Shown here: piece after piece, positions 3,148 to 27,280 of the stretch | Numbering within the stretch: position 1 is the stretch's first letter | Layout: each line of letters begins with the position of its first letter | DNA from: a virus | Taxonomy: Duplodnaviria; Heunggongvirae; Uroviricota; Caudoviricetes | Length of the DNA stretch: 42,469 bases | Virus record (IMG/VR): IMGVR_UViG_2541047705_000011 | Reading direction: 5' to 3' (one strand) | Notes under the pieces: model-generated | The model's input: the letters and a program-made list of their open reading frames with translations, nothing else | What the model was told of the DNA's origin: nothing | Database searches by the model: none | Program-made: the position numbers and the translations under genes

Positions 3148-3159
3148 AACCATATATGA
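3148..3159 (-). promoter_or_regulatory. Copy of conserved late-unit motif CATATRTGGTT, upstream of lysis operon
   Basis: Minus-strand TCATATATGGTT about 60 nt upstream of holin start; related copies at 6578-6589 and 27269-27280. Confidence 0.35.
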
Positions 3160-3368
3160 ATCATTATTGTTCCATATCATATATCTCAATAAAAGTACTA
3201 ATGATTTTACAGAACGAGCCAGCAGAGTGGGGGCAGTTGTACAGGAACCATAGACTTAATTTTGTATTTAATAATGCTATGGTGTAATAAACCTGAACAT
3301 GTATTTAAAATACGTACTGATTCATGATAGAATTCAAAGATAACTTTTCACCAACTCCGTTTTTGATA

Positions 3369-3395
3369 CCCGCAATATTTTGCGGGCTTTTTTTT
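3369..3395 (+). terminator. Hairpin plus T8, canonical only in plus orientation, at tailspike 3' end
   Basis: CCCGCAA-TATT-TTGCGGG then C and T8; the T-run overlaps the tailspike stop codon; no plus-strand CDS upstream. Confidence 0.45.
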
Positions 3396-6300
3396 AACGT
3401 TCTTCCAGAGACTGAACCCGCTCTTTTATCTTATCCATTTCTCTGCGCTGCCATGCTGCCTCGATATAGAATAAGAGATCAGGTCTGACCCCCCATCTAG
3501 ATCCTGCTGGCGTTATTTCAACGCGCTCAATGATGTCTTCCATTACCATCACTGGATTATCATCCTCATCAACAATGATGCTCCCGTCATTATCAGTCAG
3601 CGGCATTTCCCTTTGGCCAGTAATGACGTCATCATATACTGCGGGATAATCGTCATAGCAAAGAAAGGCATAGCGGCATGTTGTGCTTTCTTCTTCCATG
3701 AGTCCGTGAGAAATAAGAACATCACGAAGTTGCTGCGCGATTACACCATGATGTATCCTCGCCCCTTCTTCCCCCTTTATAGCGACAGCGTTCAGCCATT
3801 TATAAGCGATATACCTGACGTCACCCCAGGCATCCAGCAATGCTTCGTCAGGAGAGACCGGCTCTGTCTTTAATGTTCCGTCACTGGTAACCACAGGATT
3901 GGAGCCAAGATAAACTGTCGAGAACCTGTTTCCCGGACCACCAAGAGCATTTACATTATCAAGATAAGGTTTAACATCTCCGTTCTCAAAAAGATGTTCG
4001 AGTGCGTTATATACCGCGCGACGTGGAGTACTGCTTCCGGAACCATGCAACGTTATCATTGCACCATCTGCTGAAGACGTTGTTTCACCTCCGCTAACGA
4101 TTAATCTCTGAGCGGTAACATCATCAGACGGTACTTTCTTCGCAATAATGGCGTAATTACCCTCAAGTTTGACTTCCGCGCGAACTTGTCCTGATGTACC
4201 TGCATGGACAGTCAGTGACTGGACGGCAACATCATCTGTGAAATCAACGGGTACAGGAACCGTCCTCACGCCTGACGTCGACATAAAAGTAGGAAGCGTT
4301 CTGTTAGGAGTGGCTCCGTAGACAAAATCCCTTGAAACAAATTCTTCCTGTTTAATTTTCACCCTGAAACAATACAAATCAGCCGGGTGACCATCGTGAA
4401 CATAAGGATATTTTCTGTTGTTATCCCCTATGCTCCATGGGTTTAGAAAGTCTTCCCCACCGAAAATGTAGTACAGCCAGTTGTCTTTGATACAAACTGA
4501 ACCAACACCAACCGCAGAGTTAACTATTCCGCCCTGATAAATCTGATCAGTAACATTAACCCACTCTACATTATCCAGACTCCACTCATTGACGTTAACT
4601 CTGGTCATAAATGTTCTTGGATAATTTCCTGCATAACGGTTATCAGGTTCTCCTCCTTCCCACTCACCAAATGCGCGCTCACTGCCAAAAATAATCAGCT
4701 CATCGCCAACTTTGGCAAAAGGAAGGTTTGAGTGATGAACATTATTTGGGAAGCGAAGAGAATTCCATGATGTACCTAAATCAGAGCTTCTGTGCAATGA
4801 ACTACCGGGTTGAGTACTTAATGTCCCCCTGGTCGTCAGATACAGAATGCCATCATAATATTTTACACATGGCTCAGATGCATTCGCCTCATATTCTGCA
4901 GGTATGCGTCTGCGAACAAAGCTACCAGGAGAACCGAAAGCATCAGAGAAATAGAGTATCCCAAGCTCGCGTGGACCAATATCACCATTATGGTAGCCAA
5001 CAGCAAAACTGTTATCGCTAATCGTCGCAAAACTGTGAATCTCAGTAACAGGAGTGCTTCCGTCAACAAAAGAAGGAATAGTTCCAAGACTGGTTTTTCT
5101 CCATGGTGACGAGTGAAATGATGTACCAAAACTCCAGTATCTACCCTCGTTATTCTGATCCACATCCTGGGTATTTTGCGTCGTAACTGTAAAAGTATTT
5201 TTATCAATAACAGTAGTCACCGTCATATTCCCGGTAACACCTGTAACACCAGAGTTTGAGAAGTTGACAAAATCACCAGCAAATAATCCGTGATCAGTAA
5301 TGCGAATATAAGCGACTTGCTGATTTGCTGCTTTCGTTATACCACCATAAACGCGAAGGCTGCGACTCATTGGGCGATCCCACAACTCTGCAACCTGCAG
5401 TTTATTTCCGCTCACGGTCCGCGTCTCAATTACAGCAAAAAGGCGATTTCTGACAACCCCCATACTCATGCAGTGATAGTTAACTGTGGGATAGTTTTCA
5501 TGTAAATCTGTAAGCCATTCCGGCGTTGTCCAGGTCTTCCCGTCATCTCCTGAGCGAACCCATGCAACATGGAGGTTATTTACACCATGGCGGTCTCCAG
5601 CCATAAAAGGCGCATAGATGACATTGTCATATACAAACGTTTTATCCTGCGTCCAGGCGTTGTACCACGGTGTATCTGTAATTTTAAATAACTCTCCCTG
5701 GATAAAATCTTCAGAAGCATAAAAAAGAGGCTGGCCCGGTATTCTCTCAAATAAAAAACGAGCATTTTTAAATCGACTGACATCCGGAAGAGTTGATACT
5801 TTAAAAGTAAGCCCTAATCCGTCAATTTTATAACCTGGAGATGAGGCTTCAAGGCACGCGCTTATTGCAGTGGAATCGTCATTTATACCATCACCAACAG
5901 CTCCAAAATCTTTGGGGCTAATAGCATCACGCATTTTATCCTGGAACGTTCGGTACACAGCCCCAGAACCATACTGAATAAACCAACCAAAACCACCAAC
6001 AACCCCGGCGATTGCAGCATCGACATAATTACGCATTGAGCGATTATTTACAGCGTCCTGCTCAAATGATGGATCTGCAAGGTTAGAAATTTTGTTTTGC
6101 TTTGCATCGTAATATTTTGCAAGCAAAGATGGTTTCATCAATGCACGTCTGAACCACCCAAAACATTGCTGGATCAGCATCGTCAGGTAGTCAAAGGCAT
6201 CTTCATGCACTTCGGGGAAAAATTTTCCCTGATTGCGAAGGTCTGTCTCCTGCACTACATCAAGCACACGATCTATCGTAATTCGCCATCCAGTAGCAAG

Positions 6301-6513
6301 CGGAGACGGAAGAACCACAGAACCGCCACTATAAGTGCCCGCCCCAGTTACCGTATAACCGGTATCCAGAACCAATTCTGTTACGTTCCCGTTCAGGTCA
6401 GACACCTGAACAACCAGGTCTGATTTTCTGAAAATTCGAAAAGTATACGGAAACGATGTCGTAACGCCGTTACCGGTGTATTCGTTGTGGTCAACTTCGG
6501 TTGAGACCGTCAT
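3394..6513 (-). CDS. Tailspike, endosialidase-like (endo-N-acetylneuraminidase) with C-terminal intramolecular chaperone
   Basis: 1039 aa; N-terminus has T7 tail-fibre-like pattern YxGxG..F..F..LVV; two Asp-boxes SGDDGKTW and SSDLGTSW; C-terminal SDGTLK and HHGVIAQQLRDV resemble the autocleaving chaperone of endosialidases. Confidence 0.7.
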   Translation of the reverse strand: MTVSTEVDHNEYTGNGVTTSFPYTFRIFRKSDLVVQVSDLNGNVTELVLDTGYTVTGAGTYSGGSVVLPSPLATGWRITIDRVLDVVQETDLRNQGKFFPEVHEDAFDYLTMLIQQCFGWFRRALMKPSLLAKYYDAKQNKISNLADPSFEQDAVNNRSMRNYVDAAIAGVVGGFGWFIQYGSGAVYRTFQDKMRDAISPKDFGAVGDGINDDSTAISACLEASSPGYKIDGLGLTFKVSTLPDVSRFKNARFLFERIPGQPLFYASEDFIQGELFKITDTPWYNAWTQDKTFVYDNVIYAPFMAGDRHGVNNLHVAWVRSGDDGKTWTTPEWLTDLHENYPTVNYHCMSMGVVRNRLFAVIETRTVSGNKLQVAELWDRPMSRSLRVYGGITKAANQQVAYIRITDHGLFAGDFVNFSNSGVTGVTGNMTVTTVIDKNTFTVTTQNTQDVDQNNEGRYWSFGTSFHSSPWRKTSLGTIPSFVDGSTPVTEIHSFATISDNSFAVGYHNGDIGPRELGILYFSDAFGSPGSFVRRRIPAEYEANASEPCVKYYDGILYLTTRGTLSTQPGSSLHRSSDLGTSWNSLRFPNNVHHSNLPFAKVGDELIIFGSERAFGEWEGGEPDNRYAGNYPRTFMTRVNVNEWSLDNVEWVNVTDQIYQGGIVNSAVGVGSVCIKDNWLYYIFGGEDFLNPWSIGDNNRKYPYVHDGHPADLYCFRVKIKQEEFVSRDFVYGATPNRTLPTFMSTSGVRTVPVPVDFTDDVAVQSLTVHAGTSGQVRAEVKLEGNYAIIAKKVPSDDVTAQRLIVSGGETTSSADGAMITLHGSGSSTPRRAVYNALEHLFENGDVKPYLDNVNALGGPGNRFSTVYLGSNPVVTSDGTLKTEPVSPDEALLDAWGDVRYIAYKWLNAVAIKGEEGARIHHGVIAQQLRDVLISHGLMEEESTTCRYAFLCYDDYPAVYDDVITGQREMPLTDNDGSIIVDEDDNPVMVMEDIIERVEITPAGSRWGVRPDLLFYIEAAWQRREMDKIKERVQSLEER

Positions 6514-6577
6514 GTTAAATCTCCAGATAGTCGCAGCACCCGTTGCGCCGCATACCTGGTTATTCTATTACCTGGAA

Positions 6578-6589
6578 AACCACATATGG
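6578..6589 (-). promoter_or_regulatory. Copy of conserved late-unit motif CATATRTGGTT, upstream of tailspike
   Basis: Minus-strand CCATATGTGGTT then N5 and GGTAATA, 65-76 nt upstream of tailspike start. Confidence 0.35.
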
Positions 6590-6616
6590 ATAGAAAGGCT
6601 GTAAATACGAATAGAT

Positions 6617-6633
6617 ATTACCTTTCAGGTAAT
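6617..6633. promoter_or_regulatory. Operator-like palindrome ATTACC-TTTCA-GGTAAT (perfect)
   Basis: Perfect 6-bp inverted arms, 5-bp spacer; between tailspike start and the LexA-box gene. Confidence 0.6.
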
Positions 6634-6669
6634 TTGCAAAACGTGCTGGATAGCAAACAAATTATTTGA

Positions 6670-6689
6670 TACTGTATAAATATACAGTT
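6670..6689. promoter_or_regulatory. LexA box (SOS operator)
   Basis: TACTGTATAAATATACAGTT, 18/20 to consensus TACTGTATATATATACAGTA (CTGT-N8-ACAG); 20 nt upstream of the 6709 start; possible -35 TTGATA overlaps. Confidence 0.75.
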
Positions 6690-6708
6690 ATTGCATGGAG
6701 AAGATAAG

Positions 6709-6966
6709 ATGCAGCAGTATCACTATCCACTGGAAGACGGATTTACCGAAAGGATTCACACGCCGGGAGGCGTCAGGTCACTGGTGGAGGGATCGCACTT
6801 GATGAAATTACTCCGGGATCTCGATAAGGATGGATTTAATGTCGATGGCCCACTTGCCGAACTGACTGCACTGATTAACTACGTCACCAGCTCACAGATG
6901 TCTATGCAGGATCTGCAAACACATCTCGACTATTGTGCCGAACAATTACGAAAACAAACCCGGTAA
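6709..6966 (+). CDS. Small antirepressor-like protein (homologous to C-terminal domain of the BRO antirepressor at 8113-8805)
   Basis: 85 aa from ATG 6709 (track ORF starts at TTG 6691); RBS GGAGAAG; aligns with the last ~60 aa of the BRO protein. Confidence 0.6.
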   Translation: MQQYHYPLEDGFTERIHTPGGVRSLVEGSHLMKLLRDLDKDGFNVDGPLAELTALINYVTSSQMSMQDLQTHLDYCAEQLRKQTR

Positions 6967-6972
6967 ATTTAA

Positions 6973-6990
6973 AGGCCGCAAGAGCGGCCT
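6973..6990 (-). terminator. Hairpin terminator between convergent genes
   Basis: AGGCCGC-AAGA-GCGGCCT; T-rich on minus strand downstream; overlaps the 6989-7717 stop codon. Confidence 0.45.
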
Positions 6991-7717
6991 ATCGTTTCGC
7001 TTTGTGCTCGTCCCAGCACGTTTTGCACCATGCCATTAAGCCGTCCGCATTTTGATTATTAGGGTAAAAGCTGGTCCGTTTTCTGCGGACATTACAAATT
7101 GGGCACCACTTCATATGGCGTGTATTCTTTGGACCATCGAGACACCTTGCACACCACTTAGTCAATCCATCTGGATTTTTTGACGATTTCCGGAATTTGT
7201 CATATGGAAGGTTTATTCTGCATCGCAAACACTGCTTGCGGCCACTTGAAACTCTGTTAGCTGATTCTTCTTTTGGCGGCGATACAGAAGGTATTCTTGC
7301 TGGCTCTGATACTGCCTGAGGTGCTTTTTTAGATGACTGAGACGATATGTCATCACCAGGGAATCTTCCATGATATGCCGGACGCGTTGACACTCCAGGT
7401 GGAAGCTCAGCTGTAAACGGCTTTGGCTGAATCAGTTGCCTCTCTTTTGCTAACTCCTGCTGTTTATAATATGTCTGGATTACCGCACTATCATAAGCAG
7501 GAGGTACGGAAATATCAGGCGCGTTACCTCCAGTTTTTTGAAACTGAGTAGATGTGTGTTCTATCACCTGTGTACGACTAATCGTTACCTCCCCATCTTC
7601 GGTCTTTATCGTTTTGTTCTGATTAACGACCGTACGATCAGAGATCTTAGTCTTGTTCTGGTTGATAACGTAAATAATCACCGCAACCACACCAACAACT
7701 ATCCAGAAAACTTCCAT
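6989..7717 (-). CDS. Membrane-anchored protein with two C-terminal zinc-ribbon repeats, unknown function
   Basis: N-terminal TM helix, Pro/Ser-rich linker, then CLRC..x22..WCARC and CPIC..x21..WCKTC; RBS GAGGAAAAG. Confidence 0.6.
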   Translation of the reverse strand: MEVFWIVVGVVAVIIYVINQNKTKISDRTVVNQNKTIKTEDGEVTISRTQVIEHTSTQFQKTGGNAPDISVPPAYDSAVIQTYYKQQELAKERQLIQPKPFTAELPPGVSTRPAYHGRFPGDDISSQSSKKAPQAVSEPARIPSVSPPKEESANRVSSGRKQCLRCRINLPYDKFRKSSKNPDGLTKWCARCLDGPKNTRHMKWCPICNVRRKRTSFYPNNQNADGLMAWCKTCWDEHKAKR

Positions 7718-7736
7718 TGCTTTTCCTCACAATAAC

Positions 7737-7753
7737 ATTACCTTAAAGGTAAT
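7737..7753. promoter_or_regulatory. Operator-like palindrome ATTACC-TTAAA-GGTAAT (perfect)
   Basis: 20 nt upstream of the 7717 start codon; possible -35 TTGATC 17 nt from TACCTT on minus strand. Confidence 0.6.
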
Positions 7754-7785
7754 ATCTTGCTTTCAGGTGATCAAGCGTTAAACGC

Positions 7786-7807
7786 AATCAACCAAATACG
7801 GTTGATT
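7786..7807. promoter_or_regulatory. Second-type palindrome AATCAACC-N6-GGTTGATT
   Basis: Perfect 8-bp inverted repeats with 6-bp spacer, between two ATTACC/GGTAAT sites. Confidence 0.4.
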
Positions 7808-7829
7808 TTAATATTTCTTCGCGTTTATC

Positions 7830-7846
7830 ATTACCTTTGCGGTAAA
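7830..7846. promoter_or_regulatory. Operator-like palindrome ATTACC-TTTGC-GGTAAA (11/12 arms)
   Basis: Same motif family; upstream of structured leader and BRO gene. Confidence 0.5.
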
Positions 7847-7864
7847 TTTACATCGCACTCCTCT

Positions 7865-7958
7865 TGTGCCATAGTAATCGGGCACTGGCAAAATCCAGTG
7901 CCGGGATTGGTCTCCCGGATTACTACAGAGGCACATATGCCGCATAAGCGGTTTTTTT
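7865..7958 (+). other. Candidate structured RNA/leader: three-way junction fold followed by short hairpin and T7 run
   Basis: Nested complementarity TGTGCC/GGCACA, GTAATC/GATTAC, GGCACTGG/CCAGTGCC, GGGA/TCCC; then CCGC-ATAA-GCGG plus TTTTTTT; about 155 nt upstream of BRO start. Confidence 0.3.
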
Positions 7959-8112
7959 ATGTGTAAAGCGCACCTATTCTATGGTGGGCTGTGTGGGGGC
8001 ACCGAAAGGTGCGCCGGGTTCCTTTGTAGCCGGTAAGACCAACTCTGCACAGTTCACCACCATCTGATTGGTCTCAGCGGTGGTGATTAACCTAACTACA
8101 AAGGTGATCGCT

Positions 8113-8805
8113 ATGAATACCAAACCTTCCATCTTTTCCTTTGAGTCATCCTGCCAGATCCGTATGTTCATGATTGACGGAGAACCTTGGTTTGTCACCA
8201 AAGATGTGTGCAATGCTTTGAATATTGATGTTACACAAGCGAGAAAACTTGATAAAAAAGGCTGGAACAAAAAGGGGCTGTATTCAATACAGACCCCTGG
8301 TGGAATACAAGAACTATCCATCGTTTCAGAATCAGGTCTCTACATCCTTATTCTGCGTTGCAAAGAGGCAATGACTGAGGGAACGAGAGCATTCAGATTT
8401 CTTGAATGGGTTACAGGTGAGGTTCTTCCTCAGATCCGCCGCACCGGAAGTTACATTAAAAACTCGCTCCCGCAGGAAGAACGCATAAAGATGGTTGCCG
8501 ACCAGGTAGCCAACGCCACGGCGTCAGCAGTAATGCAGGCGATGAAGATAGAGAACAAAACCTACAGTGCCCCACTGAAGCCCGGCTACCGTAGCCTGAT
8601 TCATTCGCCGTCTGGTGTTCTCGGCCTGACGGAGAACTCACTGCTGATGAATCTGCTGAACCAGTTACAGGACGACGGGCACGACGTATCGGGCGCGGCG
8701 GCGGAGCTGACCACCATGTTCTGCTACATCGTCGGTGTGAGCAAATGCCTGCGTGATATCCAGACCCACGCGGAGTACATCAACGACAAGGCAGGGTTCT
8801 TCTGA
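8113..8805 (+). CDS. BRO-N domain antirepressor
   Basis: BRO-N motif FSFESSCQIRMFMIDGEPWFVTKDVCNAL; RBS AAGGTGA; start trimmed to ATG 8113; C-terminal domain homologous to the 6709-6966 protein. Confidence 0.75.
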   Translation: MNTKPSIFSFESSCQIRMFMIDGEPWFVTKDVCNALNIDVTQARKLDKKGWNKKGLYSIQTPGGIQELSIVSESGLYILILRCKEAMTEGTRAFRFLEWVTGEVLPQIRRTGSYIKNSLPQEERIKMVADQVANATASAVMQAMKIENKTYSAPLKPGYRSLIHSPSGVLGLTENSLLMNLLNQLQDDGHDVSGAAAELTTMFCYIVGVSKCLRDIQTHAEYINDKAGFF

Positions 8806-8875
8806 CGGCGGCGGCACAGGGACGTGCCTTTAAATAATTCTGTACAGATTGCAGACTGGGGGTGAATAGCGTACT

Positions 8876-8892
8876 ATTACCTCAAGGGTAAG
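8876..8892. promoter_or_regulatory. Operator-like palindrome ATTACC-TCAAG-GGTAAG
   Basis: 11/12 arm match; 59 nt upstream of the 8951 start. Confidence 0.5.
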
Positions 8893-8950
8893 AAAGCATT
8901 TTTAATCTTCCCTTCAAAACGCGTCCTGTAGCCAAACATGGGAGGACGAA

Positions 8951-9583
8951 ATGAGAACAAATACAACAAGAAAAGCGATGCCATACATTATCCCAGAAGC
9001 AGATTTCGATAGAAAACTGAACATGTCTGAGAAGAACACTAGTCACACCGAAAGCTACTTAGCGAAAGGTGTGGTTGATTTCGTTCTTCCGGGATTCACA
9101 ACACCTTATGGTTATCGCCTTGTAAAATCTTGTAATGGCGATCATTACAGAATGATTACTACCAGCGATACTCCAGAAACGGTGTATGCGGTTAAGTTAA
9201 TCTTTCGGGAAGATATCGTCGAAGCCAAAAGAACATGTACGCAGATCATGGTATGGCGTACGCCTAATGTTATTCATGACCGTGCTGTTCATGGTTTGCC
9301 TCAGATTTTTTTTCAGTTCTTCCTAGAGCAATATGCGATCGTTGTATCTGATGAGCAACAAACAATCGATGGGAGAAGATTCTGGGAAAGAATGATTTCT
9401 TGGGCTATAAACACCCCGGGATATAATGTATACGTTTCAGATGGCTCTGAAGAAGATAGACCTCTTAGCTTCATGACATCATGGGATGATTTCTATAGCC
9501 AGTGGGCTGATTTCTGTTGGGGCAGTGATAAAGATGTGCATACCCACAGACTACTGGTTATAAGCAAAGATAAACTGCATTAA
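8951..9583 (+). CDS. Hypothetical protein (210 aa), accessory/moron gene, no recognisable family
   Basis: ORF track; RBS GGGAGG; AT-rich; flanked by operator-like site upstream and terminator downstream. Confidence 0.6.
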   Translation: MRTNTTRKAMPYIIPEADFDRKLNMSEKNTSHTESYLAKGVVDFVLPGFTTPYGYRLVKSCNGDHYRMITTSDTPETVYAVKLIFREDIVEAKRTCTQIMVWRTPNVIHDRAVHGLPQIFFQFFLEQYAIVVSDEQQTIDGRRFWERMISWAINTPGYNVYVSDGSEEDRPLSFMTSWDDFYSQWADFCWGSDKDVHTHRLLVISKDKLH

Positions 9584-9588
9584 TAGAA

Positions 9589-9609
9589 GCCCGCAGCGCG
9601 GGCTTTTTT
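9589..9609 (+). terminator. Rho-independent terminator
   Basis: GCCCGC-AGC-GCGGGC followed by T6. Confidence 0.75.
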
Positions 9610-9681
9610 GTGGACGAAACAAAAGTCAGTGCTACACTCATTGACGCCACATTGAGGTGGCTTATAGATGGAAATTTCACA

Positions 9682-9843
9682 ATGAAAAAAGCATTTGCTG
9701 CACTGTTCGTTTTGTTGTCTCTGGTAGCTTCAACTCAGGCCTTTGCCGGTCGTTGTCAGCACGACAGCGATACTGCCGCTGACGGCTCCCGCTGCGGTGG
9801 GCGTTCTGCGGATTCCCGCCCGGGTGGCGGTGGCATTCGTTAA
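9682..9843 (+). CDS. Small secreted Gly/Arg-rich peptide (53 aa)
   Basis: Start at MKKAFAALFVLLSLVASTQAFA (signal peptide); putative promoter TTGACG-N16-TATAGA upstream; ORF-track N-terminal extension discarded. Confidence 0.45.
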   Translation: MKKAFAALFVLLSLVASTQAFAGRCQHDSDTAADGSRCGGRSADSRPGGGGIR

Positions 9844-9849
9844 AAACAA

Positions 9850-9865
9850 GGCCGCGAAAGCGGCC
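9850..9865 (-). terminator. Hairpin GGCCGC-GAAA-GCGGCC, terminator for lipoprotein gene (minus), weaker for plus
   Basis: GNRA-type loop; on minus strand followed by TTGTTTTTA. Confidence 0.55.
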
Positions 9866-9866
9866 T

Positions 9867-9878
9867 GTGACATGTCAC
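9867..9878. repeat. Perfect 12-bp palindrome GTGACATGTCAC (copy 1 of 3)
   Basis: Overlaps lipoprotein stop codon; identical copies at 28357-28368 and 30808-30819. Confidence 0.8.
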
Positions 9879-11073: not shown

Positions 11074-11117
11074 GTTGGAGTCATTACCTATTCTTCCGAA
11101 CAATACAATTCCGAATA

Positions 11118-11240: not shown

Positions 11241-11251
11241 CATATCTCCTT

Positions 11252-19053: not shown

Positions 19054-21524
19054 CAGAATCCCCCAACAGTAAGGCGAGGAATAACGGCAAGAACAGACAG
19101 CGGCAACGGGTCAAGCTGACGGATTTTTACACGTCCGTTTTTGCCCCAGTTACTGTCCAGTTTCACTTCTACTTTTCCGGTAGCATCATCAACAGGATCA
19201 TCGTAGAACTCGAATTCACGCTGTGGATATTCGTACCATTTACCGCCGGGCGTAGTCGCCCAGATGCCGCGACTGGCATTCACAACCAGAGTAACGGACG
19301 GGATCACCTGTTTTTTGTCCAGCAGCGTTTCCTGTCCGTTAATGTTGATATCCAGTGTTTCGAATTCAGCAGTTATTGGCAGGCCGATGTGCACTACAGC
19401 CCCCGGTGATTCCAGCGTGACGGCACCTCCGGAAACCACTTTCTGTGGTTCCACGTTCGCATCAGAGAGGATGTTTACGGTCTGGCCTTCAAGATGAGAC
19501 AAGCCGCCAAATGTCCGGCGCGCCATCTGCCAGTTCGTGGTGGCCACATTCCTGAGGGATGGCGGGACGTTCCTGTTAGCACGAACCACTACAGCGGTAT
19601 TGCTGGTTACAGAAATAATGTCGCAACGTAATTCTTTTGACACCTCATCGCCAGTATCAGGATCAGTTCCGGTATAAGGGAACTGTAGTTGCGCGCCGAC
19701 ATCACTACTGGTGAAGTACGCACCACCAGAAACACTGATTGTATATTCCGCGCGGTAATCCCATTCGCCAGAACCACCAGTGATGGTCATCGTTCTGTCA
19801 GACGTATTTCTTCCATCATAGCTAAGGCCAGAATCAACAAAGAAAGCATCTTCATCGCTGGTAAATAAACGGCTGGACAGTCGCTCGATGTATCTCACTG
19901 TTTGCCCGTTAACGGTTCGGTTAATGACGAAATACACCGCATCTTCATTGCCTTCGCTGATACTGCATGTGCTTTCATATTTTCCGGTACTGGACTGTGG
20001 TGCCCATGCAAAAACCTGTTGATCACGCAAATAGGTCATCACCAGTAATTTACCGTCATCACGAATGCAGAAGGCGCTGGAGTAAGGGACTATCGAGAAG
20101 CACCAGTCAACAATGCTGTGCTTCTGAAAAAGATGATTGGCAAGGATGGTCAGGTCGTTCCCCTGATAGCCGTCAACATCGAATGAGTAGGCCAGATCAC
20201 GGACAACGCTGCCTTTCTCCTGGACGAACAGAGCAATATTCGCCACGGCAATTGGCGGGACGTTGCTTGAGCCATTTGATCCCTGAGAGCTGAATGCAAA
20301 TGATGATGGGGTTAACACTTTGTTCTGGTCGCCGGTGATGACGTACTCACCTCCGGAAGTCAGCGCCACCAGAGAACCAACATCAATCAGGTGGCGGATC
20401 TCATTAACCTGACGTCCGGCATAGGTGTAGATAATTCTGTCGTCATCCTGCGTAGGATTGCTTTTGCCAAAATCCTTATAATCCCCGGTACGGCTGGCCC
20501 AGATAGTCTGAGGAAACGCAGTCGATGCGGCGAAGTAAAGACGTTGTTGATAATAAACAACAGTGCCAGGATAACCATTAACACTGTTCCAGGCATATTT
20601 AGCCCATTTATAGCTGGCATTATCCTCGCCCACGACCTGCGAAGGGATATAGGAAATCACCTCGGCAGTTGCAGTAGTTCCATTTGCAGCAGTGATACGG
20701 GCAATGCCAAAACCACTGTGCAGATATTCCCACTCAATGCCAGTATCATCATCACCGGATCCGCCCCAGCCATCCCATGATGTGCCTTCTGTATGCGAAG
20801 GGCGCAAAGTACCTGTTTTGCCTGCTGTAACGGCGCGATAGTAGTTACTGTCTGCACGGCGAATATCGCCAATCGACGTACTCTTACTGGTTTCCCATAC
20901 CGGCACAGAATCCACTGCAGGCTGTTCCAGATAGAACAATTTGCCTACCTGCTCCGCGCCAAAAATAGAGGCGCTTGCCGTTAGCGTAATTGTCCCGGTG
21001 CTGGCGCTGGCATAAACCGTCACTGACTCGTCAATATTGATATCTTCAAATGGCCCGTTCTTCGTTACCACATCAACCAGTTGCCAGTTGTCATGCGCAT
21101 AGCGGCGCAACTCTTTCGGCGGGTATGCCGGATGAACCAGCGTAAGCACGTCTGCGCTTTGCGTGAATTTAATTCGGAACAGATCGGCTTCAGTATATGG
21201 CGTGGCAATTTCATAAATAACATTGCTGCTGTTCAGCACCAACGCACCATCTTTGATAACGCGCATGTACTGGTGTCCAAACTCCAGAGCATAAGTCTGA
21301 ACCGTCGAGAACTGGAACGGGATCAGGCGGCATTTCCGATTTGGGTATTTGGCGGCACCGACAAAACGCGTACCAGGTCGATTCTCAACGCCGCCATACT
21401 GCCGCACGATAAAGTTATCGCACTTGCGCAATGCCACCTGGTACTTAGCCATGTCAATACGCCCGTACAACGACGGTCCAATCTCACCACCGGCAAAGCT
21501 GGGCTGGATCCAACTGATAGCCAT
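19053..21524 (-). CDS. Tail tubular protein B-like (nozzle)
   Basis: 823 aa directly downstream of tubular-A-like gene; size and position match podovirus tail-tube protein B. Confidence 0.55.
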   Translation of the reverse strand: MAISWIQPSFAGGEIGPSLYGRIDMAKYQVALRKCDNFIVRQYGGVENRPGTRFVGAAKYPNRKCRLIPFQFSTVQTYALEFGHQYMRVIKDGALVLNSSNVIYEIATPYTEADLFRIKFTQSADVLTLVHPAYPPKELRRYAHDNWQLVDVVTKNGPFEDINIDESVTVYASASTGTITLTASASIFGAEQVGKLFYLEQPAVDSVPVWETSKSTSIGDIRRADSNYYRAVTAGKTGTLRPSHTEGTSWDGWGGSGDDDTGIEWEYLHSGFGIARITAANGTTATAEVISYIPSQVVGEDNASYKWAKYAWNSVNGYPGTVVYYQQRLYFAASTAFPQTIWASRTGDYKDFGKSNPTQDDDRIIYTYAGRQVNEIRHLIDVGSLVALTSGGEYVITGDQNKVLTPSSFAFSSQGSNGSSNVPPIAVANIALFVQEKGSVVRDLAYSFDVDGYQGNDLTILANHLFQKHSIVDWCFSIVPYSSAFCIRDDGKLLVMTYLRDQQVFAWAPQSSTGKYESTCSISEGNEDAVYFVINRTVNGQTVRYIERLSSRLFTSDEDAFFVDSGLSYDGRNTSDRTMTITGGSGEWDYRAEYTISVSGGAYFTSSDVGAQLQFPYTGTDPDTGDEVSKELRCDIISVTSNTAVVVRANRNVPPSLRNVATTNWQMARRTFGGLSHLEGQTVNILSDANVEPQKVVSGGAVTLESPGAVVHIGLPITAEFETLDININGQETLLDKKQVIPSVTLVVNASRGIWATTPGGKWYEYPQREFEFYDDPVDDATGKVEVKLDSNWGKNGRVKIRQLDPLPLSVLAVIPRLTVGGF

Positions 21525-22129
21525 CAGGACAACCTCGCAATGGTAAACTCATCAACCGGTGGCTGTGGTTCCTGTGATTCATTCTGGCTATGCGAGCCAG
21601 CACTAAGAATCACGCGATTGTACATATTGAGGGCAAACGTACCGAGGTCTTCATTCCCAGTCAGCGCCATGTTAATAGCTGCCGCAAGACGCCAGGCCAA
21701 CGCCTCCATAAAAATGGCATCAAACATGTTCACATCTGAAACGCGAGAGACATACTTGAGCCATGCCTGCGGCTGGTCTGTGTAGATCAACTTTCCTGTT
21801 CCGTTGGTGTCTGCACCAACTTCGTACTGAACGCGCATTGCTGCTGTTGGATTGCGTACACCAGGAAGCATAATTTCAGTAATGCGCAGACAATCGGACG
21901 GGTACTGATACGCATATTCCCAGTCAGGCGGTGGATTGCTCGTATCTGCAAGCGCCACGCGTTTGGTAGCAAAGTTCCAGTCAAAATCAGAAAGCACAGC
22001 ATCACGGCAGGCCTCAAAGTGCAGCGAACATTCCCCCGCTTCCTTGCTGGCTTCCGTCAGGCTGTTAATGCTGCGGCTATTGCCAATATTGGACAGCGCA
22101 CGATTGCAGATCTCTACTACAGAGGCCAT
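21524..22129 (-). CDS. Tail tubular protein A-like
   Basis: 201 aa; N-terminal EICNRALSNIGNS resembles the T7 gp11 N-terminus (recalled, not searched). Confidence 0.5.
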   Translation of the reverse strand: MASVVEICNRALSNIGNSRSINSLTEASKEAGECSLHFEACRDAVLSDFDWNFATKRVALADTSNPPPDWEYAYQYPSDCLRITEIMLPGVRNPTAAMRVQYEVGADTNGTGKLIYTDQPQAWLKYVSRVSDVNMFDAIFMEALAWRLAAAINMALTGNEDLGTFALNMYNRVILSAGSHSQNESQEPQPPVDEFTIARLS

Positions 22130-22452
22130 TACTCACCCCCATTGCCGTACAGGGTTTCAGCCGCTGATTTTTCTACATCCCCGGAAACAGGAGCGATCGC
22201 CATATCAGTGATCTGCAGATCGGCGCTGCGATTAACACCATCGTCAGTTTCTCTGGCAGACAGGCCTCGAATAACAGCTTTTGCAGTTATCATCACTTCT
22301 GTTCCGACGCCCTGAGGTTGCGCCTTCAGCTTATTCAATGTGTCGTTATTAAGAGTGATGCACAGCCCCCACGGGTATTCATCGCGAGTTCTGGTTTCTC
22401 CGCTCTCATCCTGGTAGCTGTCAGTGCCGGTTTTGAGGTTTACGAGTTCCAT
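22129..22452 (-). CDS. Hypothetical virion protein
   Basis: Track ORF starts at GTG 22458; internal ATG 22452 has RBS AGGAG at 5 nt. Confidence 0.5.
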   Translation of the reverse strand: MELVNLKTGTDSYQDESGETRTRDEYPWGLCITLNNDTLNKLKAQPQGVGTEVMITAKAVIRGLSARETDDGVNRSADLQITDMAIAPVSGDVEKSAAETLYGNGGE

Positions 22453-22463
22453 ATACACTCCTG

Positions 22464-22484
22464 CAATAAAGGGGCCGAAGCCCC
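22464..22484 (-). terminator. Intra-operon hairpin GGGGC-UUCG-GCCCC plus U-tract (partial terminator or mRNA stabiliser)
   Basis: UUCG tetraloop hairpin then TTTATTG on minus strand, just before next gene's RBS. Confidence 0.4.
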
Positions 22485-22502
22485 TTGTCGGATTCGCGAG
22501 GC

Positions 22503-22847
22503 TTACACGCCTAGTTCTTTACGCTTATCTGCGATCTTCTCGCGGAGCGTTTCGGCTTTAGCGTTATGGTGTGGCTTCTCGTTAAAGAGCAATTCGTACT
22601 CTTCACGGAGCTTATCCAGTTCACCATCATCTGACACATCGTTGATGATTTTGGTGCTGGTTGCTGCCATTGACACCTTTCCTGCAACTTTTGCTTTTGC
22701 CTGTCTGGCTGCATCGTTAACAGGTTCCAGTGCGCTACCAGGCTCACCTTCGTATTCGATTTCTGCCCCCTCCGGCCACAGAGTGTTATGGATATGAGAG
22801 AGGCGCAGAACGCGGTATCTTGGTTTCTCACCTGACATCGATATCAC
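22503..22847 (-). CDS. Hypothetical virion-module protein (114 aa)
   Basis: ORF track; within capsid-proximal cluster. Confidence 0.5.
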   Translation of the reverse strand: MISMSGEKPRYRVLRLSHIHNTLWPEGAEIEYEGEPGSALEPVNDAARQAKAKVAGKVSMAATSTKIINDVSDDGELDKLREEYELLFNEKPHHNAKAETLREKIADKRKELGV

Positions 22848-22848
22848 C

Positions 22849-23286
22849 TTAACCAGTTACTTTTGAGCGGATCGGATACGGCGTATTGGCATCAACATCA
22901 AGACTGATACCAGCAGTGAATTCGCCAGCCGTTAGTGGGCCAGTTGCGACGGAGTAGTTAACACGCAGATATCGCTGAACACCGGCAGGCACCTTTGCAG
23001 AAACAACTCGTTTACCTGCTGTCAGGGCGGTCTTTGCCAGTGCGCCACTATCATAAATAGTGGTCCATGAGCTGTTATTCTCACTCGTCTGCAACTGGAT
23101 GTTTACAGTTGCATCACCGCTTGCTGAGGCGGCTGCGTTAACCAGCACCCAAAACTCAAGCGGGTAACCCACGCCGATATCGCGATGGTTTCCATCAATT
23201 GGACCGAGATCGATTACGTCAGTAGAAGCCGCGGTATCAGTTACCGCCTGTGCTTCGGAGAACATCAACAGTTTGTCGGTGATCAT
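22849..23286 (-). CDS. Putative capsid decoration/structural protein (145 aa)
   Basis: ORF track; directly downstream of major capsid gene; RBS GGAGAAAG. Confidence 0.5.
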   Translation of the reverse strand: MITDKLLMFSEAQAVTDTAASTDVIDLGPIDGNHRDIGVGYPLEFWVLVNAAASASGDATVNIQLQTSENNSSWTTIYDSGALAKTALTAGKRVVSAKVPAGVQRYLRVNYSVATGPLTAGEFTAGISLDVDANTPYPIRSKVTG

Positions 23287-23337
23287 CTTCTTTCTCCATT
23301 AGTGGGTCTGTTACGACCCACAGGTTAATAACAGGCG

Positions 23338-24330
23338 TTACACCACGCGGGCTTCTGTTTCCAGAAGCGCATCAGTTTCACGGATTGGTACACCACGGAA
23401 TGAAGTCCACCACTCGCCTTCTGTCTCTTTTACGCTGATCGCCAGAGATGTTTTCTCCAGAGATTGCAGATCAAGAGCCTGGCCTACAGTGCGGTTCATG
23501 TAGAACACCGGGCGACCCATGCCACGATTTGGAATGCGATGCAGTGCTTTAACCATCAACTTCGCAATATTTGCGGCAGAGGATGGTTCTGAAAGATTGC
23601 TGACATCGATGTTTGCAATGCGAACAACATAACGCCAGTCACGCAGAGCAAGTCCGTTATCCCATTTGTAATGGGTACGGTAGCCTTCGTACTTGCCGCC
23701 ATTAGCATCTTCCAGTGTCACCTGGCCTTTATCTTCCATCTGAATGCCAGCCTTCTGCCCTTTCGGGAAGATGCCATGCACGGTGTTTTCGCCCCACACC
23801 ACTAACCAGATTGAGGTGTTATCTGTACCCGTGCCACCAGCATCAATGATGTTCTGAGCATTACCTGCAGACAGGCTGGAATAGCGGGAGGACAGTCCCA
23901 TAAACTGCTGAGGGTTAACGCTGGAATCACCATAAAACAGCGTCTGCGCCATCTGCTGATTCATCGCTTCAATAAATGCGCGGTCTTCAGACAGGCGGAA
24001 TTCGGCGGTATTGCCGTTCAGATCAGCCAGTGACTTATCGACTTCAGCATAGGTTTCCAGCATGCCCACGTAATCGGTTACCTGCACTGTGGTTGATTTG
24101 CTTGGCTGTACGCCATAGTTCAGCAAACGCCAGGTAGCTGAAGGTAAACCAGAACGAATGGTGGTTCGGTGTCCGGTAGGAAGGTTCCCTTCGACAAAAG
24201 GCATATCCTGAAGGATCGGGTTAGTTTGACCGAGAAGCTCGATAATCTTATCGACTTTCCCGTTTTGATCGACGCGCTTACCCCAGTCAGCCAGCGTCAG
24301 CGCAGTTAAGCCTTTAACAGCCATTGTCAT
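23338..24330 (-). CDS. Major capsid protein
   Basis: 330 aa; follows the acidic scaffold gene; size and position typical. Confidence 0.7.
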   Translation of the reverse strand: MTMAVKGLTALTLADWGKRVDQNGKVDKIIELLGQTNPILQDMPFVEGNLPTGHRTTIRSGLPSATWRLLNYGVQPSKSTTVQVTDYVGMLETYAEVDKSLADLNGNTAEFRLSEDRAFIEAMNQQMAQTLFYGDSSVNPQQFMGLSSRYSSLSAGNAQNIIDAGGTGTDNTSIWLVVWGENTVHGIFPKGQKAGIQMEDKGQVTLEDANGGKYEGYRTHYKWDNGLALRDWRYVVRIANIDVSNLSEPSSAANIAKLMVKALHRIPNRGMGRPVFYMNRTVGQALDLQSLEKTSLAISVKETEGEWWTSFRGVPIRETDALLETEARVV

Positions 24331-24338
24331 TTCCTCTC

Positions 24339-25040
24339 TTATTTGCCATAGAGCACTTCGGCCGCACTACGCTGGCCTTCATTACCACCGGTGACCATGC
24401 CATCTTCAGACATCGCCTTTCCGATTTTCACGAACGTTTTGACCAGATCAGGGTGATTACCCAGCCCGGTGGTGTTCAGATATTCTTTGAGTTCAGGTGT
24501 CCCGAACTGGTCAAGCGCACGCTGTGCGGCGCTAAGGTTAGAAATCAACTTGTCGCCACCGATTTCTTTGTCGGCTTTTACATCCGCAGCCCACTGCTCG
24601 GTTGTTTTCTGCCAGGCTTCTGCCTGGCGCTGCTGAACACCTGCCAGAATCTTCGGATAAGCATCAACCAGCTTTTGCGCTTGCTCGTTGGTCAGGTTTA
24701 GTTCTCGCGCCACCGGCTCGAATTCCTTCAATGCTTCTGTATCCAGCTCTACGCCTTCGGCAGCCTGAAACTCGTACTTTTCAGGCGCACCCTCTGGTTT
24801 ATCGCCGTCCTTTTTTTCATCCTGCTTATCGTTTTCAGGCTTTTTGTCATCAGCAGGTTTATCGCCATCAGCAACAGGTTGTGGCTTATCACCTTCCTGT
24901 TGTGATGGATCACCAACTGGAGCAGGGTTATCACCTGCAGGCGCTGACGGTTCTGACGCAGCCGGAGCTGCTCCACCATCGACTGGTTGCTCATTGCAAA
25001 GACGGCGATACAGCAAACGCTCAAATAAATTCATGATCAC
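24339..25040 (-). CDS. Scaffolding protein
   Basis: Acidic, Pro/Asp/Lys-rich low-complexity N-terminal half; between portal and capsid. Confidence 0.6.
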   Translation of the reverse strand: MIMNLFERLLYRRLCNEQPVDGGAAPAASEPSAPAGDNPAPVGDPSQQEGDKPQPVADGDKPADDKKPENDKQDEKKDGDKPEGAPEKYEFQAAEGVELDTEALKEFEPVARELNLTNEQAQKLVDAYPKILAGVQQRQAEAWQKTTEQWAADVKADKEIGGDKLISNLSAAQRALDQFGTPELKEYLNTTGLGNHPDLVKTFVKIGKAMSEDGMVTGGNEGQRSAAEVLYGK

Positions 25041-25333
25041 TCCTGTTCACTGGCCTCTTTGGCCATCTTCAAATACTGTTCAGGGCAATGCGCCATAACG
25101 CGCTGAAACAGTTCCAGCGCCAGATTGCGTTGCCCCTCATTAAATGCCATTGCCATAGCATCCATCGGTGAGATAGCGGAAAACACACGGCCTTTCTCCA
25201 GCACCGACCAGACAACGCGACGCCCCTGTTCACTGCTCATGACAAAGCGAATGTCATCAATTTCACGCTGTGCCATGTCACGTTGCTTACGGGCGTTTTC
25301 TTCTTTCAGTTGATCGTCTTCATAATCTGTCAT
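25037..25333 (-). CDS. Small head-assembly-module protein (98 aa)
   Basis: ORF track; overlaps portal stop and scaffold start. Confidence 0.45.
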   Translation of the reverse strand: MTDYEDDQLKEENARKQRDMAQREIDDIRFVMSSEQGRRVVWSVLEKGRVFSAISPMDAMAMAFNEGQRNLALELFQRVMAHCPEQYLKMAKEASEQE

Positions 25334-27009
25334 TGTGATAGCCCACCCTGACCACTAACTGCATTCGCCATAGCTGACAACACACTCGGATCCGAAGTTT
25401 TAGCTTCGCTTAGCGTCTTGGCCCCCTGTGCCGCCGCCATCCCCATCGCCATCATTTGTTGCTGCTGTTGTTGCTGTGCCCGTTGCTGGCGAGCCTGCTC
25501 AACCTGTTCCTGCGGAACAATGACGGTTGGAGACACTCCGGACATATCAGCGAATGCATCGATCGCCTGATCAACGTTGAGTTTGTCGAGAGCTTCTGGT
25601 TTCGCTTGCGCAAGTTGACCAATGAAGTTAACCGTGGACGCCAGACTGGACAGGCCGATAGACTTCTGCGCCTGAGCCATGACGGAAATGTATTCGACCT
25701 TCAGGGGCATACCTTCCATCGCGTCAGGCGGTGGCGGCAGCATGTTTTTACGCACCATCATCGAGAAAGCGCGGTCAATGAGAGGATTAAGACATTCGTC
25801 GTTCAGACGCTCCAGAACCGGCCCCAACATCAGAAGTTTTTCTTCTTTCATTTCGATCACCGCTTCAACAGGCATCGAGCGGGTATTGATGTTCTGCAAC
25901 ATCATGAACAGATCGACAAAGTAGGCGCTGTTAATGATTTGACGGGTGTCCTGAATGTCTGCCACCAAATCTGCTGTACTGGGGTTAACCAGATAAGCAG
26001 GCCTGAAACCATCCTGACCAGTAATCTGATCGATATACGTGATGTCGCCAGGAAGAAGGGAGGCACGCTGATTCTTGAGGGAAGTCGGAGCAACCATCGG
26101 CGGATTGGTGGCTTTATCAATCAACTGCGACTTGCGCTTCTGGAGAAGCTGCAATGCCTTAACAGGTCCAAGCGCCAGCATACCCGGGCATGATGATCCA
26201 TAAACATCTTCGCCGTTAACTTCCCAGCGCGGAGCCATAATTGGAAACTCATCGAATCCGGACTCACGCAACAACTTGTCGTTATCGCCACCAACCTCGT
26301 AATAAACCGATTTGAATGGCTTGTTCTTGCTATCCAGCTTCGATGTATCGCGGTCAATGTTCGGGTAAACCGAATGCATCACTTCAATCCACTTCTCGTA
26401 GGTGCCGCTTTCCCACATGCTTTTTACGGATTCGCTGACGTTATTTAGTCCGAACTCCTGAACAAGCTGACGAACAGTCATAGAGAACTTGCGAAAACAG
26501 GTGTCCACACTGCCACGAGGTGAGTTAGCCAGGTAGTAACTTCCTATCGGGAATGGCATTGTACGAATGATGTCCTCGTCATCCTCCAGCACCGCCATTG
26601 CGCCAGTGCTGTATGTGCCGAGGCTTCCGTATAACTGCGGCAGCGACTGATAGAGATTCGACTTATTGAACATATCGTTCATGCGGTTCTGCACCGCCTC
26701 AAGCCACAACTTAACAGGGCCATAATCCATCATTTCAGGATCTGGCGTAGCCAGGCGAAACCACGGACGCGCGGGGCTTGTGATGCCTGACATCATGCCG
26801 CTGGCGAGAGTGCGCGCCGCCATAGTCCCGGTCGAATCAATAATGCGTGTATTGCGTCGATCGTTACGGTTGACCTCAGAAGTCAGAAAGCGGGAACCAC
26901 GCGGGTTGATGTAATCACTCAACTCGCGCCAGTGCGGCTCGAACGACTGACGCTCGCTTTCAAGTTGTGCGAACTGTTTGTTCAATCGCTCTTTAGTTGT
27001 TTCCGCCAT
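25330..27009 (-). CDS. Portal protein
   Basis: 559 aa; Gln-rich C-terminal tail (QQRAQQQQQQQMMAMGMAAAQ) like podovirus portals; RBS GGAG. Confidence 0.75.
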   Translation of the reverse strand: MAETTKERLNKQFAQLESERQSFEPHWRELSDYINPRGSRFLTSEVNRNDRRNTRIIDSTGTMAARTLASGMMSGITSPARPWFRLATPDPEMMDYGPVKLWLEAVQNRMNDMFNKSNLYQSLPQLYGSLGTYSTGAMAVLEDDEDIIRTMPFPIGSYYLANSPRGSVDTCFRKFSMTVRQLVQEFGLNNVSESVKSMWESGTYEKWIEVMHSVYPNIDRDTSKLDSKNKPFKSVYYEVGGDNDKLLRESGFDEFPIMAPRWEVNGEDVYGSSCPGMLALGPVKALQLLQKRKSQLIDKATNPPMVAPTSLKNQRASLLPGDITYIDQITGQDGFRPAYLVNPSTADLVADIQDTRQIINSAYFVDLFMMLQNINTRSMPVEAVIEMKEEKLLMLGPVLERLNDECLNPLIDRAFSMMVRKNMLPPPPDAMEGMPLKVEYISVMAQAQKSIGLSSLASTVNFIGQLAQAKPEALDKLNVDQAIDAFADMSGVSPTVIVPQEQVEQARQQRAQQQQQQQMMAMGMAAAQGAKTLSEAKTSDPSVLSAMANAVSGQGGLSQ

Positions 27010-27023
27010 TTCAATGACTCCGG

Positions 27024-27230
27024 TTACTGACCAAGCAGTGTTTTACCGCTGGTATTAGCGGTTGATGTGTCGCCCTGAGAACCGGTAAGCAGCGTAGAAC
27101 TACGACCAGCAGCAGCGCGACGGCGACGAGTTTCTTCGTCGCGGGCATCAACAACGGCGGCATCCTGCTCCTGTGGTGCTGCCTGAACTTCTGGTGTTGC
27201 AGGCACTGACGGTGAGCTACCCATGCACAT
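27024..27230 (-). CDS. Small low-complexity protein upstream of portal (68 aa)
   Basis: RBS GGAGTCATTGAT identical in context to the portal RBS. Confidence 0.4.
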   Translation of the reverse strand: MCMGSSPSVPATPEVQAAPQEQDAAVVDARDEETRRRRAAAGRSSTLLTGSQGDTSTANTSGKTLLGQ

Positions 27231-27268
27231 ATCAATGACTCCGTACGCAATTAAATTATTACCAATTT

Positions 27269-27280
27269 AACCACATATGA
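27269..27280 (-). promoter_or_regulatory. Copy of conserved late-unit motif CATATRTGGTT, upstream of portal unit
   Basis: Minus-strand TCATATGTGGTT then N5 and GGTAATA, 39-50 nt upstream of the 27230 start. Confidence 0.35.

Follow-up and report, generated by a model that had tools for sequence, protein, structure and literature searches.

The sequence CATATRTGGTT, hereafter the box, stands at the head of three late transcription units of a prophage entered as IMG/VR virus record IMGVR_UViG_2541047705_000011. We tentatively propose, with slightly less than even confidence, that it is a conserved core element of three late promoters in phages of the genus Uetakevirus. The stretch of DNA analysed, 42,469 nucleotides in length and referred to throughout as the window, is by sequence identity a prophage of the epsilon15/phiV10 type (genus Uetakevirus), because its first 25 kb match phiV10-type phages: they are 97 % identical to phiv142-3, HEMP4, phiV10 and the O157 typing phages 9 and 10, and 81 % identical to Enterobacter phage Tyrion. 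The prophage runs from int through the early genes to p55, terS-terL, gp3-portal, the structural genes, tailspike, lysis and the attachment site, with the late genes on the minus strand. These late genes are co-directional and are interrupted by islands on the opposite strand (tRNA/moron, antirepressor-c4 and O-antigen modification), so that late transcription would have to restart three times, each restart needing a promoter; a box is found at each of the presumed restart points.

The box at the heads of three late units

Exact copies of the box occur three times in the window, all on the minus strand, at 3148-3158, 6578-6588 and 27269-27279. By chance 0.03 copies are expected, as estimated from 100 dinucleotide-preserving shuffles of the window, none of which reached three. 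All three copies are intergenic and co-oriented with the late genes downstream, lying 38-62 nt upstream of the start codons of the gp3/portal unit (27230), the tailspike gene (6513) and the first lysis gene (3087). The copy CATATGTGGTT at 27269-27279 precedes the structural operon, of which the gp3 homologue (27024-27230, minus strand) is the first open reading frame (ORF) and the portal gene (25330-27009, minus strand) adjoins it, both being recognized by homology to phiV10p06/p07. The same sequence at 6578-6588 precedes the tailspike ORF (3394-6513, minus strand). The third copy, CATATATGGTT at 3148-3158, precedes the lysis operon (1290-3087, minus strand), whose ORFs encode a membrane protein, holin, endolysin and spanins, and has a variant context in common with phage ZX5. 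The original prediction had placed minus-strand copies before these same three units and is borne out, except that its spans (3148-3159, 6578-6589 and 27269-27280) were one base too long at the upstream end. It had also named an equal frequency of the motif inside coding regions as grounds for rejecting it; no copy with at most one mismatch was found inside the coding sequence of the window, so this objection falls away. The only match at one mismatch, CTTATGTGGTT at 34111-34121 (minus strand), is likewise intergenic and lies in the spacer of an early/middle promoter, that of the DUF1064/resolvase operon (TTGATT-17-TTTAAT), where it is flanked by two repressor dyads. At two mismatches the count is at chance level (26 versus 20.4 expected).

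The box forms the right 11 nt of an imperfect 14-bp palindrome with the consensus AACCATATATGGTT, whose symmetry is complete at the phiV10 and Tyrion lysis sites. When three mismatches or fewer are allowed, this palindrome occurs six times in the window against 1.55 expected, five of the six being intergenic. In all late sites it is the GGTT half that lies on the promoter-proximal side, and its conservation far exceeds that of the left half. A full palindrome, AACCAGATTTGGTT at 36080-36093, is found beyond the cro-like gene terminator, immediately next to a -35-like TTGATC that precedes gp40; the pattern A(A/T)CC-N6-GGTT-GATC is kept at this post-cro site in every relative examined, and the palindrome appears to belong to the box family. 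Box-like copies related to that at 34111-34121 are found at the same promoter in relatives, in inverted orientation in Tyrion, and a further related copy lies in the spacer of the early-left promoter of Tyrion. An inverted partial box with two mismatches (CATACCTGGTT on the plus strand, 6551-6561) lies directly downstream of the putative tailspike -10, so that in the E. coli group box-like sequences stand on both sides of this -10; the inverted copy is not conserved in the Salmonella, Enterobacter and Klebsiella relatives. We set aside a box-like CATATATGAGG upstream of rep (36526-36536), which lacks conservation in relatives.

A search of related genomes, as the original prediction had suggested, found the box at homologous positions across the genus while the neighbouring bases drift. 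The genomes of phiV10, epsilon15, Tyrion, SPN1S and PAT1 each have the box at all three homologous sites, with diverging flanks. BUCT711, which has no separate lysis unit, carries it at two sites, the portal copy being AATATGTGGTT. A scan of a viral contig collection for CATATRTGGTT-N5-GGTAAT returned at least 120 stretches; among the 119 matches listed, 116 lie directly upstream of gp3/portal (66) or of the tailspike gene (50), one is at a contig end and two are apparently due to chance. Hardly any variation affects the portal block aaataaatCATATGTGGTTaaattGGTAATAAT in six other genomes or, among the matches listed, in 66 viral contigs. The tailspike site follows the consensus CATATnnGGTT-N5-GGTAATA(G/C)AAT (N4 in SPN1S), and in 57 unique tailspike upstream regions gathered by protein homology, independently of the motif, CATAT, GGTT, GGTAATA and AAT never change, whereas variation is seen at motif positions 6-7 and in the N5. 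The lysis site has the consensus (A)(A/T)(C/T)CATAT(A/G)TGGTT-tattgtg-TAT(A/G)AT. Here the flanks in the window are unrelated to the phiV10-type lysis region except for an 18-nt block, CATATATGGTTTAYTRTG, and this context was otherwise found only in ZX5 and two fragments. The box thus shows what is expected of a late-promoter box read by a phage factor in being repeated at the heads of late operons, co-oriented with them and conserved while its flanks vary.

Architecture of the candidate late promoters

The original prediction had noted GGTAATA 5 nt after two of the boxes, and this spacing is exact at the tailspike (6566-6572) and portal (27257-27263) copies; the heptamer was not found 5 nt downstream of the lysis box of the window. 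Its position was thus correctly described; it is one arm, or half-site, of the operator of the prophage repressor, a 15-17 bp dyad of the form (A)TTACC-N5-GGTAA(T). The window carries 11 perfect TTACC-N5-GGTAA dyads plus several imperfect ones, and a search with up to three mismatches to one dyad copy gives 11 where 0.24 would be expected. The spacing is N5 in each of the 11 perfect dyads, and none with N4, N6 or N7 was found in the window. Three dyads occupy the gap between the cro-like gene (36169-36399) and the helix-turn-helix repressor gene rep (36554-37138). The RefSeq record of epsilon15 labels seven such dyads as "repressor" sites, including those upstream of gp3 and the tailspike gene, and has no annotation of the CATAT..GGTT boxes.

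Copies of the dyad TTACCTGAAAGGTAA lie 29 nt upstream of the tailspike box (6618-6632) and 41 nt upstream of the portal box (27321-27335), and the epsilon15 homologues of both are among those annotated "repressor". In the phiV10-type lysis region the corresponding distance is 32 nt. These spacers are variable in sequence and fixed in length: the 29-nt tailspike spacer is found in 7/7 genomes and 48/49 Uetakevirus contig sites (the other has 30 nt), and the 41-nt portal spacer in 7/7 genomes and 64/65 contig sites. From 5' to 3' the sites thus consist of the dyad, a spacer of 29, 32 or 41 nt, the box, a further 7-10 nt and a conserved -10-like hexamer, which is at a fixed distance in each site. 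The hexamers are TA(G/C)AAT (tailspike), TAT(A/G)AT (phiV10-type lysis) and AATAAT (portal, with the rare variants GATAAT, AATGAT and AATAAA); all three have A at position 2 and T at position 6, and we take them as putative -10 elements. In the window the tailspike hexamer, TAGAAT, lies together with the GGTAA half-site at 6562-6572 (minus strand). Within GGTAATA(G/C)AAT only the third base of the hexamer changes (TAGAAT/TACAAT), and a sole variable base at the third position of TAnAAT supports the assignment. The putative portal hexamer lies with GGT at 27255-27263 (minus strand), overlapping GGTAATA.

If these hexamers are correctly assigned, the box would lie at about -33 to -23 at the tailspike site or -30 to -20 at the lysis site, and the dyads would be centred at -70 (tailspike and lysis) and -80 (portal). 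The box would then extend over the 3' part of the -35 region and the upstream end of the spacer. Hexamers that could serve as a -35 match poorly, the best candidates being TCCATA/TTCATA and ATCATA (3-4 of 6), and a consensus scan (at least 4/6 per hexamer and 9/12 overall) detected no canonical sigma-70 promoter at either the tailspike or the portal site; two 9/12 candidates flank the lysis box of the window. Because the box overlaps the -35/spacer region above conserved -10-like hexamers, a role as a promoter core or regulator site is reasonable. Of the suggestion in the original prediction that it may be a late-promoter or late-activator site, the location at the head of three late units upstream of -10-like hexamers holds, while the preference for activation over repression is unsupported.

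Additional evidence comes from contexts in which the dyad is missing. The window lysis box has no nearby dyad, and in a recombinant contig (L340, IMGVR_UViG_2585427789_000028) homology begins only about 5 nt upstream of the tailspike box. This contig is a natural recombinant in which unrelated DNA has replaced everything upstream of the box, including the dyad and a LexA box. Since the box is retained both there and in the unrelated, dyad-free lysis context of the window, it is likely to belong to the promoter itself. In the model we envisage, the box would be bound by a dimeric DNA-binding factor encoded by the phage, which would enable sigma-70 RNA polymerase to initiate there. The missing canonical sigma-70 promoter at the tailspike and portal sites is consistent with such factor dependence, and the partial dyad symmetry of the box, together with its inverted occurrence in Tyrion, suggests a dimeric protein. 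In most relatives the same promoters would carry a repressor operator at about -70 or -80, and at two sites also a half-site beside the -10, so that they are probably shut off directly in the lysogen as well.

Several observations weigh against this proposal. The best -10 candidate does not keep a constant distance from the box (7, 8 and 10 nt), and the window lysis variant has no -10 at 7 nt. Related copies lie in the spacers of good early promoters or directly upstream of a -35, which is unexpected for a pure activator site. The fixed distance between box and dyad fits a repression model equally well. Finally, a lysis-leader hairpin of 22-24 bp begins at the GGTT of the box.

The fixed distance leads to the most serious rival, namely that the box is an auxiliary, low-affinity operator of Rep, the prophage repressor. 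Here a Rep tetramer on the strong dyad 29-41 nt upstream would also contact the box (core ACC-N6-GGT), the GGTAA half-site beside the -10, or both, with the resulting loop blocking in the lysogen what would be weak sigma-70 promoters, later freed by antirepressor. Direct repressor control has to be taken seriously because GGTAATA is an exact operator half-site and a full operator lies at a fixed upstream distance in most relatives. The box resembles the operator (AACC-N6-GGTT against TTACC-N5-GGTAA), and the constant length of the spacers (29, 32 and 41 nt), despite their variable sequence, across seven genomes and about 113 contig sites gives centre-to-centre distances of about 40.5, 43.5 and 52.5 bp, near whole helical turns. 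Each of the other box-like copies (34111, 36080, 37239 and 7790) has a dyad no more than about 40 bp away. For the relative SPC32H, Kim et al. (PNAS 2016) are said to have found Rep to be a tetramer that pairs DNA-binding domains of different dimers. The structure of this protein, 5D50, is cited in the epsilon15 record. Nevertheless, the half-site spacing of the box, A(A/T)(C/T)C-N6-GGTT, is one base longer than in all bona fide operators (N5 in 11 cases, N6 never), its left half is weak, and a true half-site is present only in the GGTAATA that follows two of the boxes. Moreover, the boxes are not among the seven repressor sites marked in epsilon15, they persist without a nearby dyad at the window lysis site and in L340, and the dyads are explicable on their own as operators of divergent promoters. 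We therefore consider a Rep operator at the box unlikely, though by some way the least unlikely of the rivals.

A divergent plus-strand promoter, TTGACA-17-TACCTT at about 27290-27335, is directed to the tRNA-Arg gene and away from the portal unit; the dyad 27321-27335 lies over its -10, the promoter is conserved in epsilon15 and the Klebsiella relatives, and this dyad may for that reason first serve the divergent promoter. Back to back with the tailspike promoter, at about 6670-6690, is a LexA (SOS) box, CTGT-N8-ACAG, in the plus-strand promoter of a small gene (6691-6966), and this is conserved in all aligned relatives. LexA-controlled induction of an antirepressor has reportedly been described for SPC32H/SPN1S, with which this LexA box fits.

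A different geometry is raised by the lysis leader. In the window (3090-3150, minus strand) the 5' arm of the hairpin begins at the GGTT of the box and the 3' arm ends at the ribosome-binding site. Its folding energy is -17.5 kcal/mol, and it differs in sequence from, and is weaker than, the hairpins of phiV10 and epsilon15 (-31 and -35 kcal/mol, z-scores -5.8 and -6.4, respectively); the stable hairpin is located in relatives at L001 24747-24805 and L002 24759-24812. For the homologous stretch the epsilon15 record gives an RNase III site. In transcripts initiated upstream the hairpin would mask the ribosome-binding site. The promoter geometry at the lysis site is ambiguous because this conserved hairpin starts at the GGTT, and if it lies within the lysis mRNA, then transcription must start at or upstream of the box, contrary to our proposal. 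The box might accordingly be a leader element at or just before the transcription start, forming either the 5' edge of regulatory hairpins (for RNase III processing, masking of the ribosome-binding site or mRNA stabilisation) or a start-proximal operator, with the promoters lying upstream. Besides the hairpin itself, which runs from GGTT to the ribosome-binding site even where its sequence differs, this view is favoured by a hexamer with A as its second and T as its sixth base, which ends 1-3 nt before the box in five of the six lysis sites, and by potential pairing of GGUUAAAUU with AAUUUAAUU in the portal leader. The tailspike and portal sites, however, give no support to a start at or before the box. 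Upstream of their boxes there is no conserved -10-like hexamer, and the 29-41 nt there are the least conserved. The portal hairpin is no better than shuffles (z -1.5), and downstream of the tailspike box the complement of GGTT is conserved only in the E. coli group whereas GGTT itself is invariant. Variation of GGTAATA(G/C)AAT solely at the third position of TAnAAT is the signature of a -10 and not of an RNA loop. We regard a leader element as improbable.

An equally improbable view takes the box as the site through which a second regulator of repressor type, for example gp40 (a small zinc-finger protein) or the Cro-like protein, turns the promoters down. Overlap with the -35/spacer is a classical repressor position, box-like palindromes lie in the spacers of the Tyrion early-left promoter and the DUF1064-operon promoter, and one lies directly upstream of gp40 in every relative. 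Yet there is no obvious purpose in shutting off head, tail and lysis genes in this way, no such palindrome is present between cro and rep, where a Cro-type protein should act, and no covariation of the box with cro alleles was seen: five contigs with a distinct cro/rep allele have a GATT variant at the portal site that is not mirrored at their post-cro site. Lastly, the box could have no separate function and be due to chance or be the remnant of one duplicated promoter region, as hinted by an identical 16-mer, TACCTGAAAGGTAATA, common to the portal and tailspike regions of the window; this is hardly credible given the shuffling result, the differing length and sequence of the spacers between the common blocks, a lysis copy that has nothing else in common with the other two, and the constancy of the box over genera as its flanks change.

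Candidate regulators and neighbouring elements

The gene in the classical position of a late regulator, directly before terS, is a homologue of epsilon15 gp49/phiV10p55 (p55, 30816-31157) that matches phrog_536, "transcriptional regulator". It has no Pfam or PDB sequence match, and its features are a ribbon-helix-helix-like character, a basic N-terminus and four conserved cysteines. The family comprises 154 clusters at E of at most 0.001 among 1.8 billion representatives. With distant alignments too divergent and left out of locus retrieval, we compared 38 non-Uetakevirus loci (with 42-80 % identical homologues, most 73-80 %) with 29 Uetakevirus loci. Box-like sites are 14 times rarer in the former (0.03 versus 0.42 per 10 kb). 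As the box does not co-occur with p55, p55 is unlikely to be its reader, and this counts against the late-promoter proposal in removing its best-placed regulator. The palindrome GTGACRYGTCAC, on the other hand, is present in 36/38 non-Uetakevirus and 29/29 Uetakevirus p55 loci. The original prediction had recognized no Q-like antiterminator; this stands in so far as none was detected among 20 early/regulatory ORFs scanned with PHROGs (10 also with Pfam), where Lpa- and Ogr-like proteins were likewise not found, but a conserved regulator, p55, does precede terS even though it tracks a different palindrome. Candidates for the putative box-binding factor are the cro-like protein, the zinc-finger-like gp40 (35818-36018), a PerC-like protein (40082-40381), an AlpA-like protein (39724-39972) and Rep itself. 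The gp40 homologues recovered in a scan were all identical copies from Uetakevirus.

Three exact copies of a 12-bp palindrome, GTGACATGTCAC, lie in the window (9867-9878, 28357-28368 and 30808-30819), where about none is expected. An intrinsic terminator lies 0-5 nt away from each of the first two copies, of which one stands where the structural operon ends and the other follows the plus-strand gene beside terL. The third overlaps the stop codon of p55, the next terminator being about 230 nt downstream, past a small inserted ORF. Palindromes of this type, with a central pair AT, CA/TG or CG, also follow p55 homologues or other gene ends in contigs of unrelated prophages, usually 0-25 nt before a terminator. 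This distribution makes GTGACATGTCAC a candidate p55 site, possibly for terminator-linked control. Taken together with the box, a wider circuit can be drawn, which we offer as speculative and doubtful as a whole: a putative factor would read a -30 box that replaces the -35 at three restart promoters, each phased to a Rep operator at -70 or -80 that clamps it directly, while p55 would act via the terminator-adjacent GTGACATGTCAC at operon ends, suggesting antitermination or read-through control common to unrelated prophages.

The terS-terL unit lacks a box and lies downstream of a terminator, and may therefore be expressed by read-through from the early-right operon. Directly before the terS start codon, at 30511-30543, are two overlapping repressor-type dyads, one with a GGTTA arm, TTACCACGGTGGTTA. 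Between the p55 homologue and the terminator preceding terS is an extra ORF of about 70 aa (30586-30800, minus strand); phiV10 has about 40 nt in its place, and it is probably an inserted accessory (moron) gene. In the island upstream of the portal unit, a tRNA-Arg(TCT) gene and an adjoining 245-bp stretch occupy 27417-27661 and 27658-27734 (plus strand). The 245-bp stretch is about 80 % identical to unannotated DNA in P1/P7, Stx2c phages, the cdtI phage and mEp460, and its P1/P7 counterpart comes directly after tRNA-Ile. Two Rfam families, isrK (74.7 bits) and the P1/P7 C4 antisense RNA (78.6 bits), match with scores above gathering at 7882-7958 and 7977-8064 (plus strand). Repressor dyads at 7745 and 7838 lie upstream of both matches and antirepressor-like genes follow them, and judging from this arrangement the region is a P1 immI-like c4-icd-ant module within a podovirus.

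In the full-text literature, the sole matches to the box or its complement, to the dyad and to GTGACATGTCAC were unrelated primers. The paper on ZX5 lists four software-predicted promoters and gives no operator or late-promoter sequences in its text. Within the searchable literature the box is thus undescribed, while the dyads are already annotated as repressor sites. The epsilon15/phiV10-type phages have uses as structural models and, for E. coli O157 and Salmonella, as reporter phages, and are common enterobacterial prophages. For these the box defines three concrete candidate promoters and a bait for the late regulator, and supplies a simple signature for annotating late transcription units in hundreds of prophages.

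Comparison with known late-control systems

Among the sites of host factors, those of DnaA, IHF, Fis and CRP, and the sigma-54, sigma-E and sigma-28 promoters, do not fit the box in a by-eye comparison with their consensus sequences. With the Uetakevirus Rep operators (17-bp ATTACC-N5-GGTAAT) the box has in common an ACC...GGT core, palindromic form and adjacent placement; it differs from these in its N6 spacing, GGTT in place of GGTAA, its conserved CATAT centre and the absence of a repressor annotation. In P2, 186 and P4 the zinc-finger activators Ogr, B and Delta act at TGT-N12-ACA centred near -55. The likeness here is that several late operons each have a dyad for a small phage activator. 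A regular-expression search detected no TGT-N12-ACA within about 110 nt upstream of each box, and identity with the Ogr dyad is rejected as both position and sequence differ.

The late promoter PR' of lambda has its Q-binding element between the -35 and the -10, with good hexamers, a sigma-dependent pause and a terminator directly downstream. The Uetakevirus sites resemble it in having a late-regulator site inside the promoter spacer, and differ in comprising three putative promoters instead of one, in their poor -35 hexamers and in the Q family not being recognized among the 20 ORFs scanned. No promoter-proximal terminator is reported in the portal leader, where the 38 nt from box end to ATG leave no room for one. 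If Rep indeed acts directly on the late promoters, this would be a departure from the cascade logic of lambda.

At the middle promoters of T4, a lytic phage, MotA binds a box at about -30 with the consensus (a/t)(a/t)(a/t)TGCTTtA, together with remodelling of sigma by AsiA. As in T4, a box centred near -30 would substitute for -35 recognition beside a good -10; the consensus differs, however, and nothing like AsiA remodelling is evident in the window. The late promoters of P1, which depend on Lpa (gp10) and host SspA, offer several parallels: a conserved box replaces the -35 upstream of the -10 and is repeated at several dispersed late operons of a temperate phage, repressor operators are scattered over the genome, and the window itself carries a P1-type c4 antisense RNA module. 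A late promoter activator match to Lpa was not obtained among the 20 phage ORFs in the PHROGs and Pfam scans. We reject identity with the P1 -22 box, as LPlyz reads AAGTGATTT-gcat-TATCCT in the annotated record, an unrelated sequence with its box 4 nt from the -10, whereas the Uetakevirus box is longer, further upstream and phased to a repressor operator. In its role, the Uetakevirus box may nonetheless have a counterpart in P1 (the -22 box) or T4 (the -30 MotA box).

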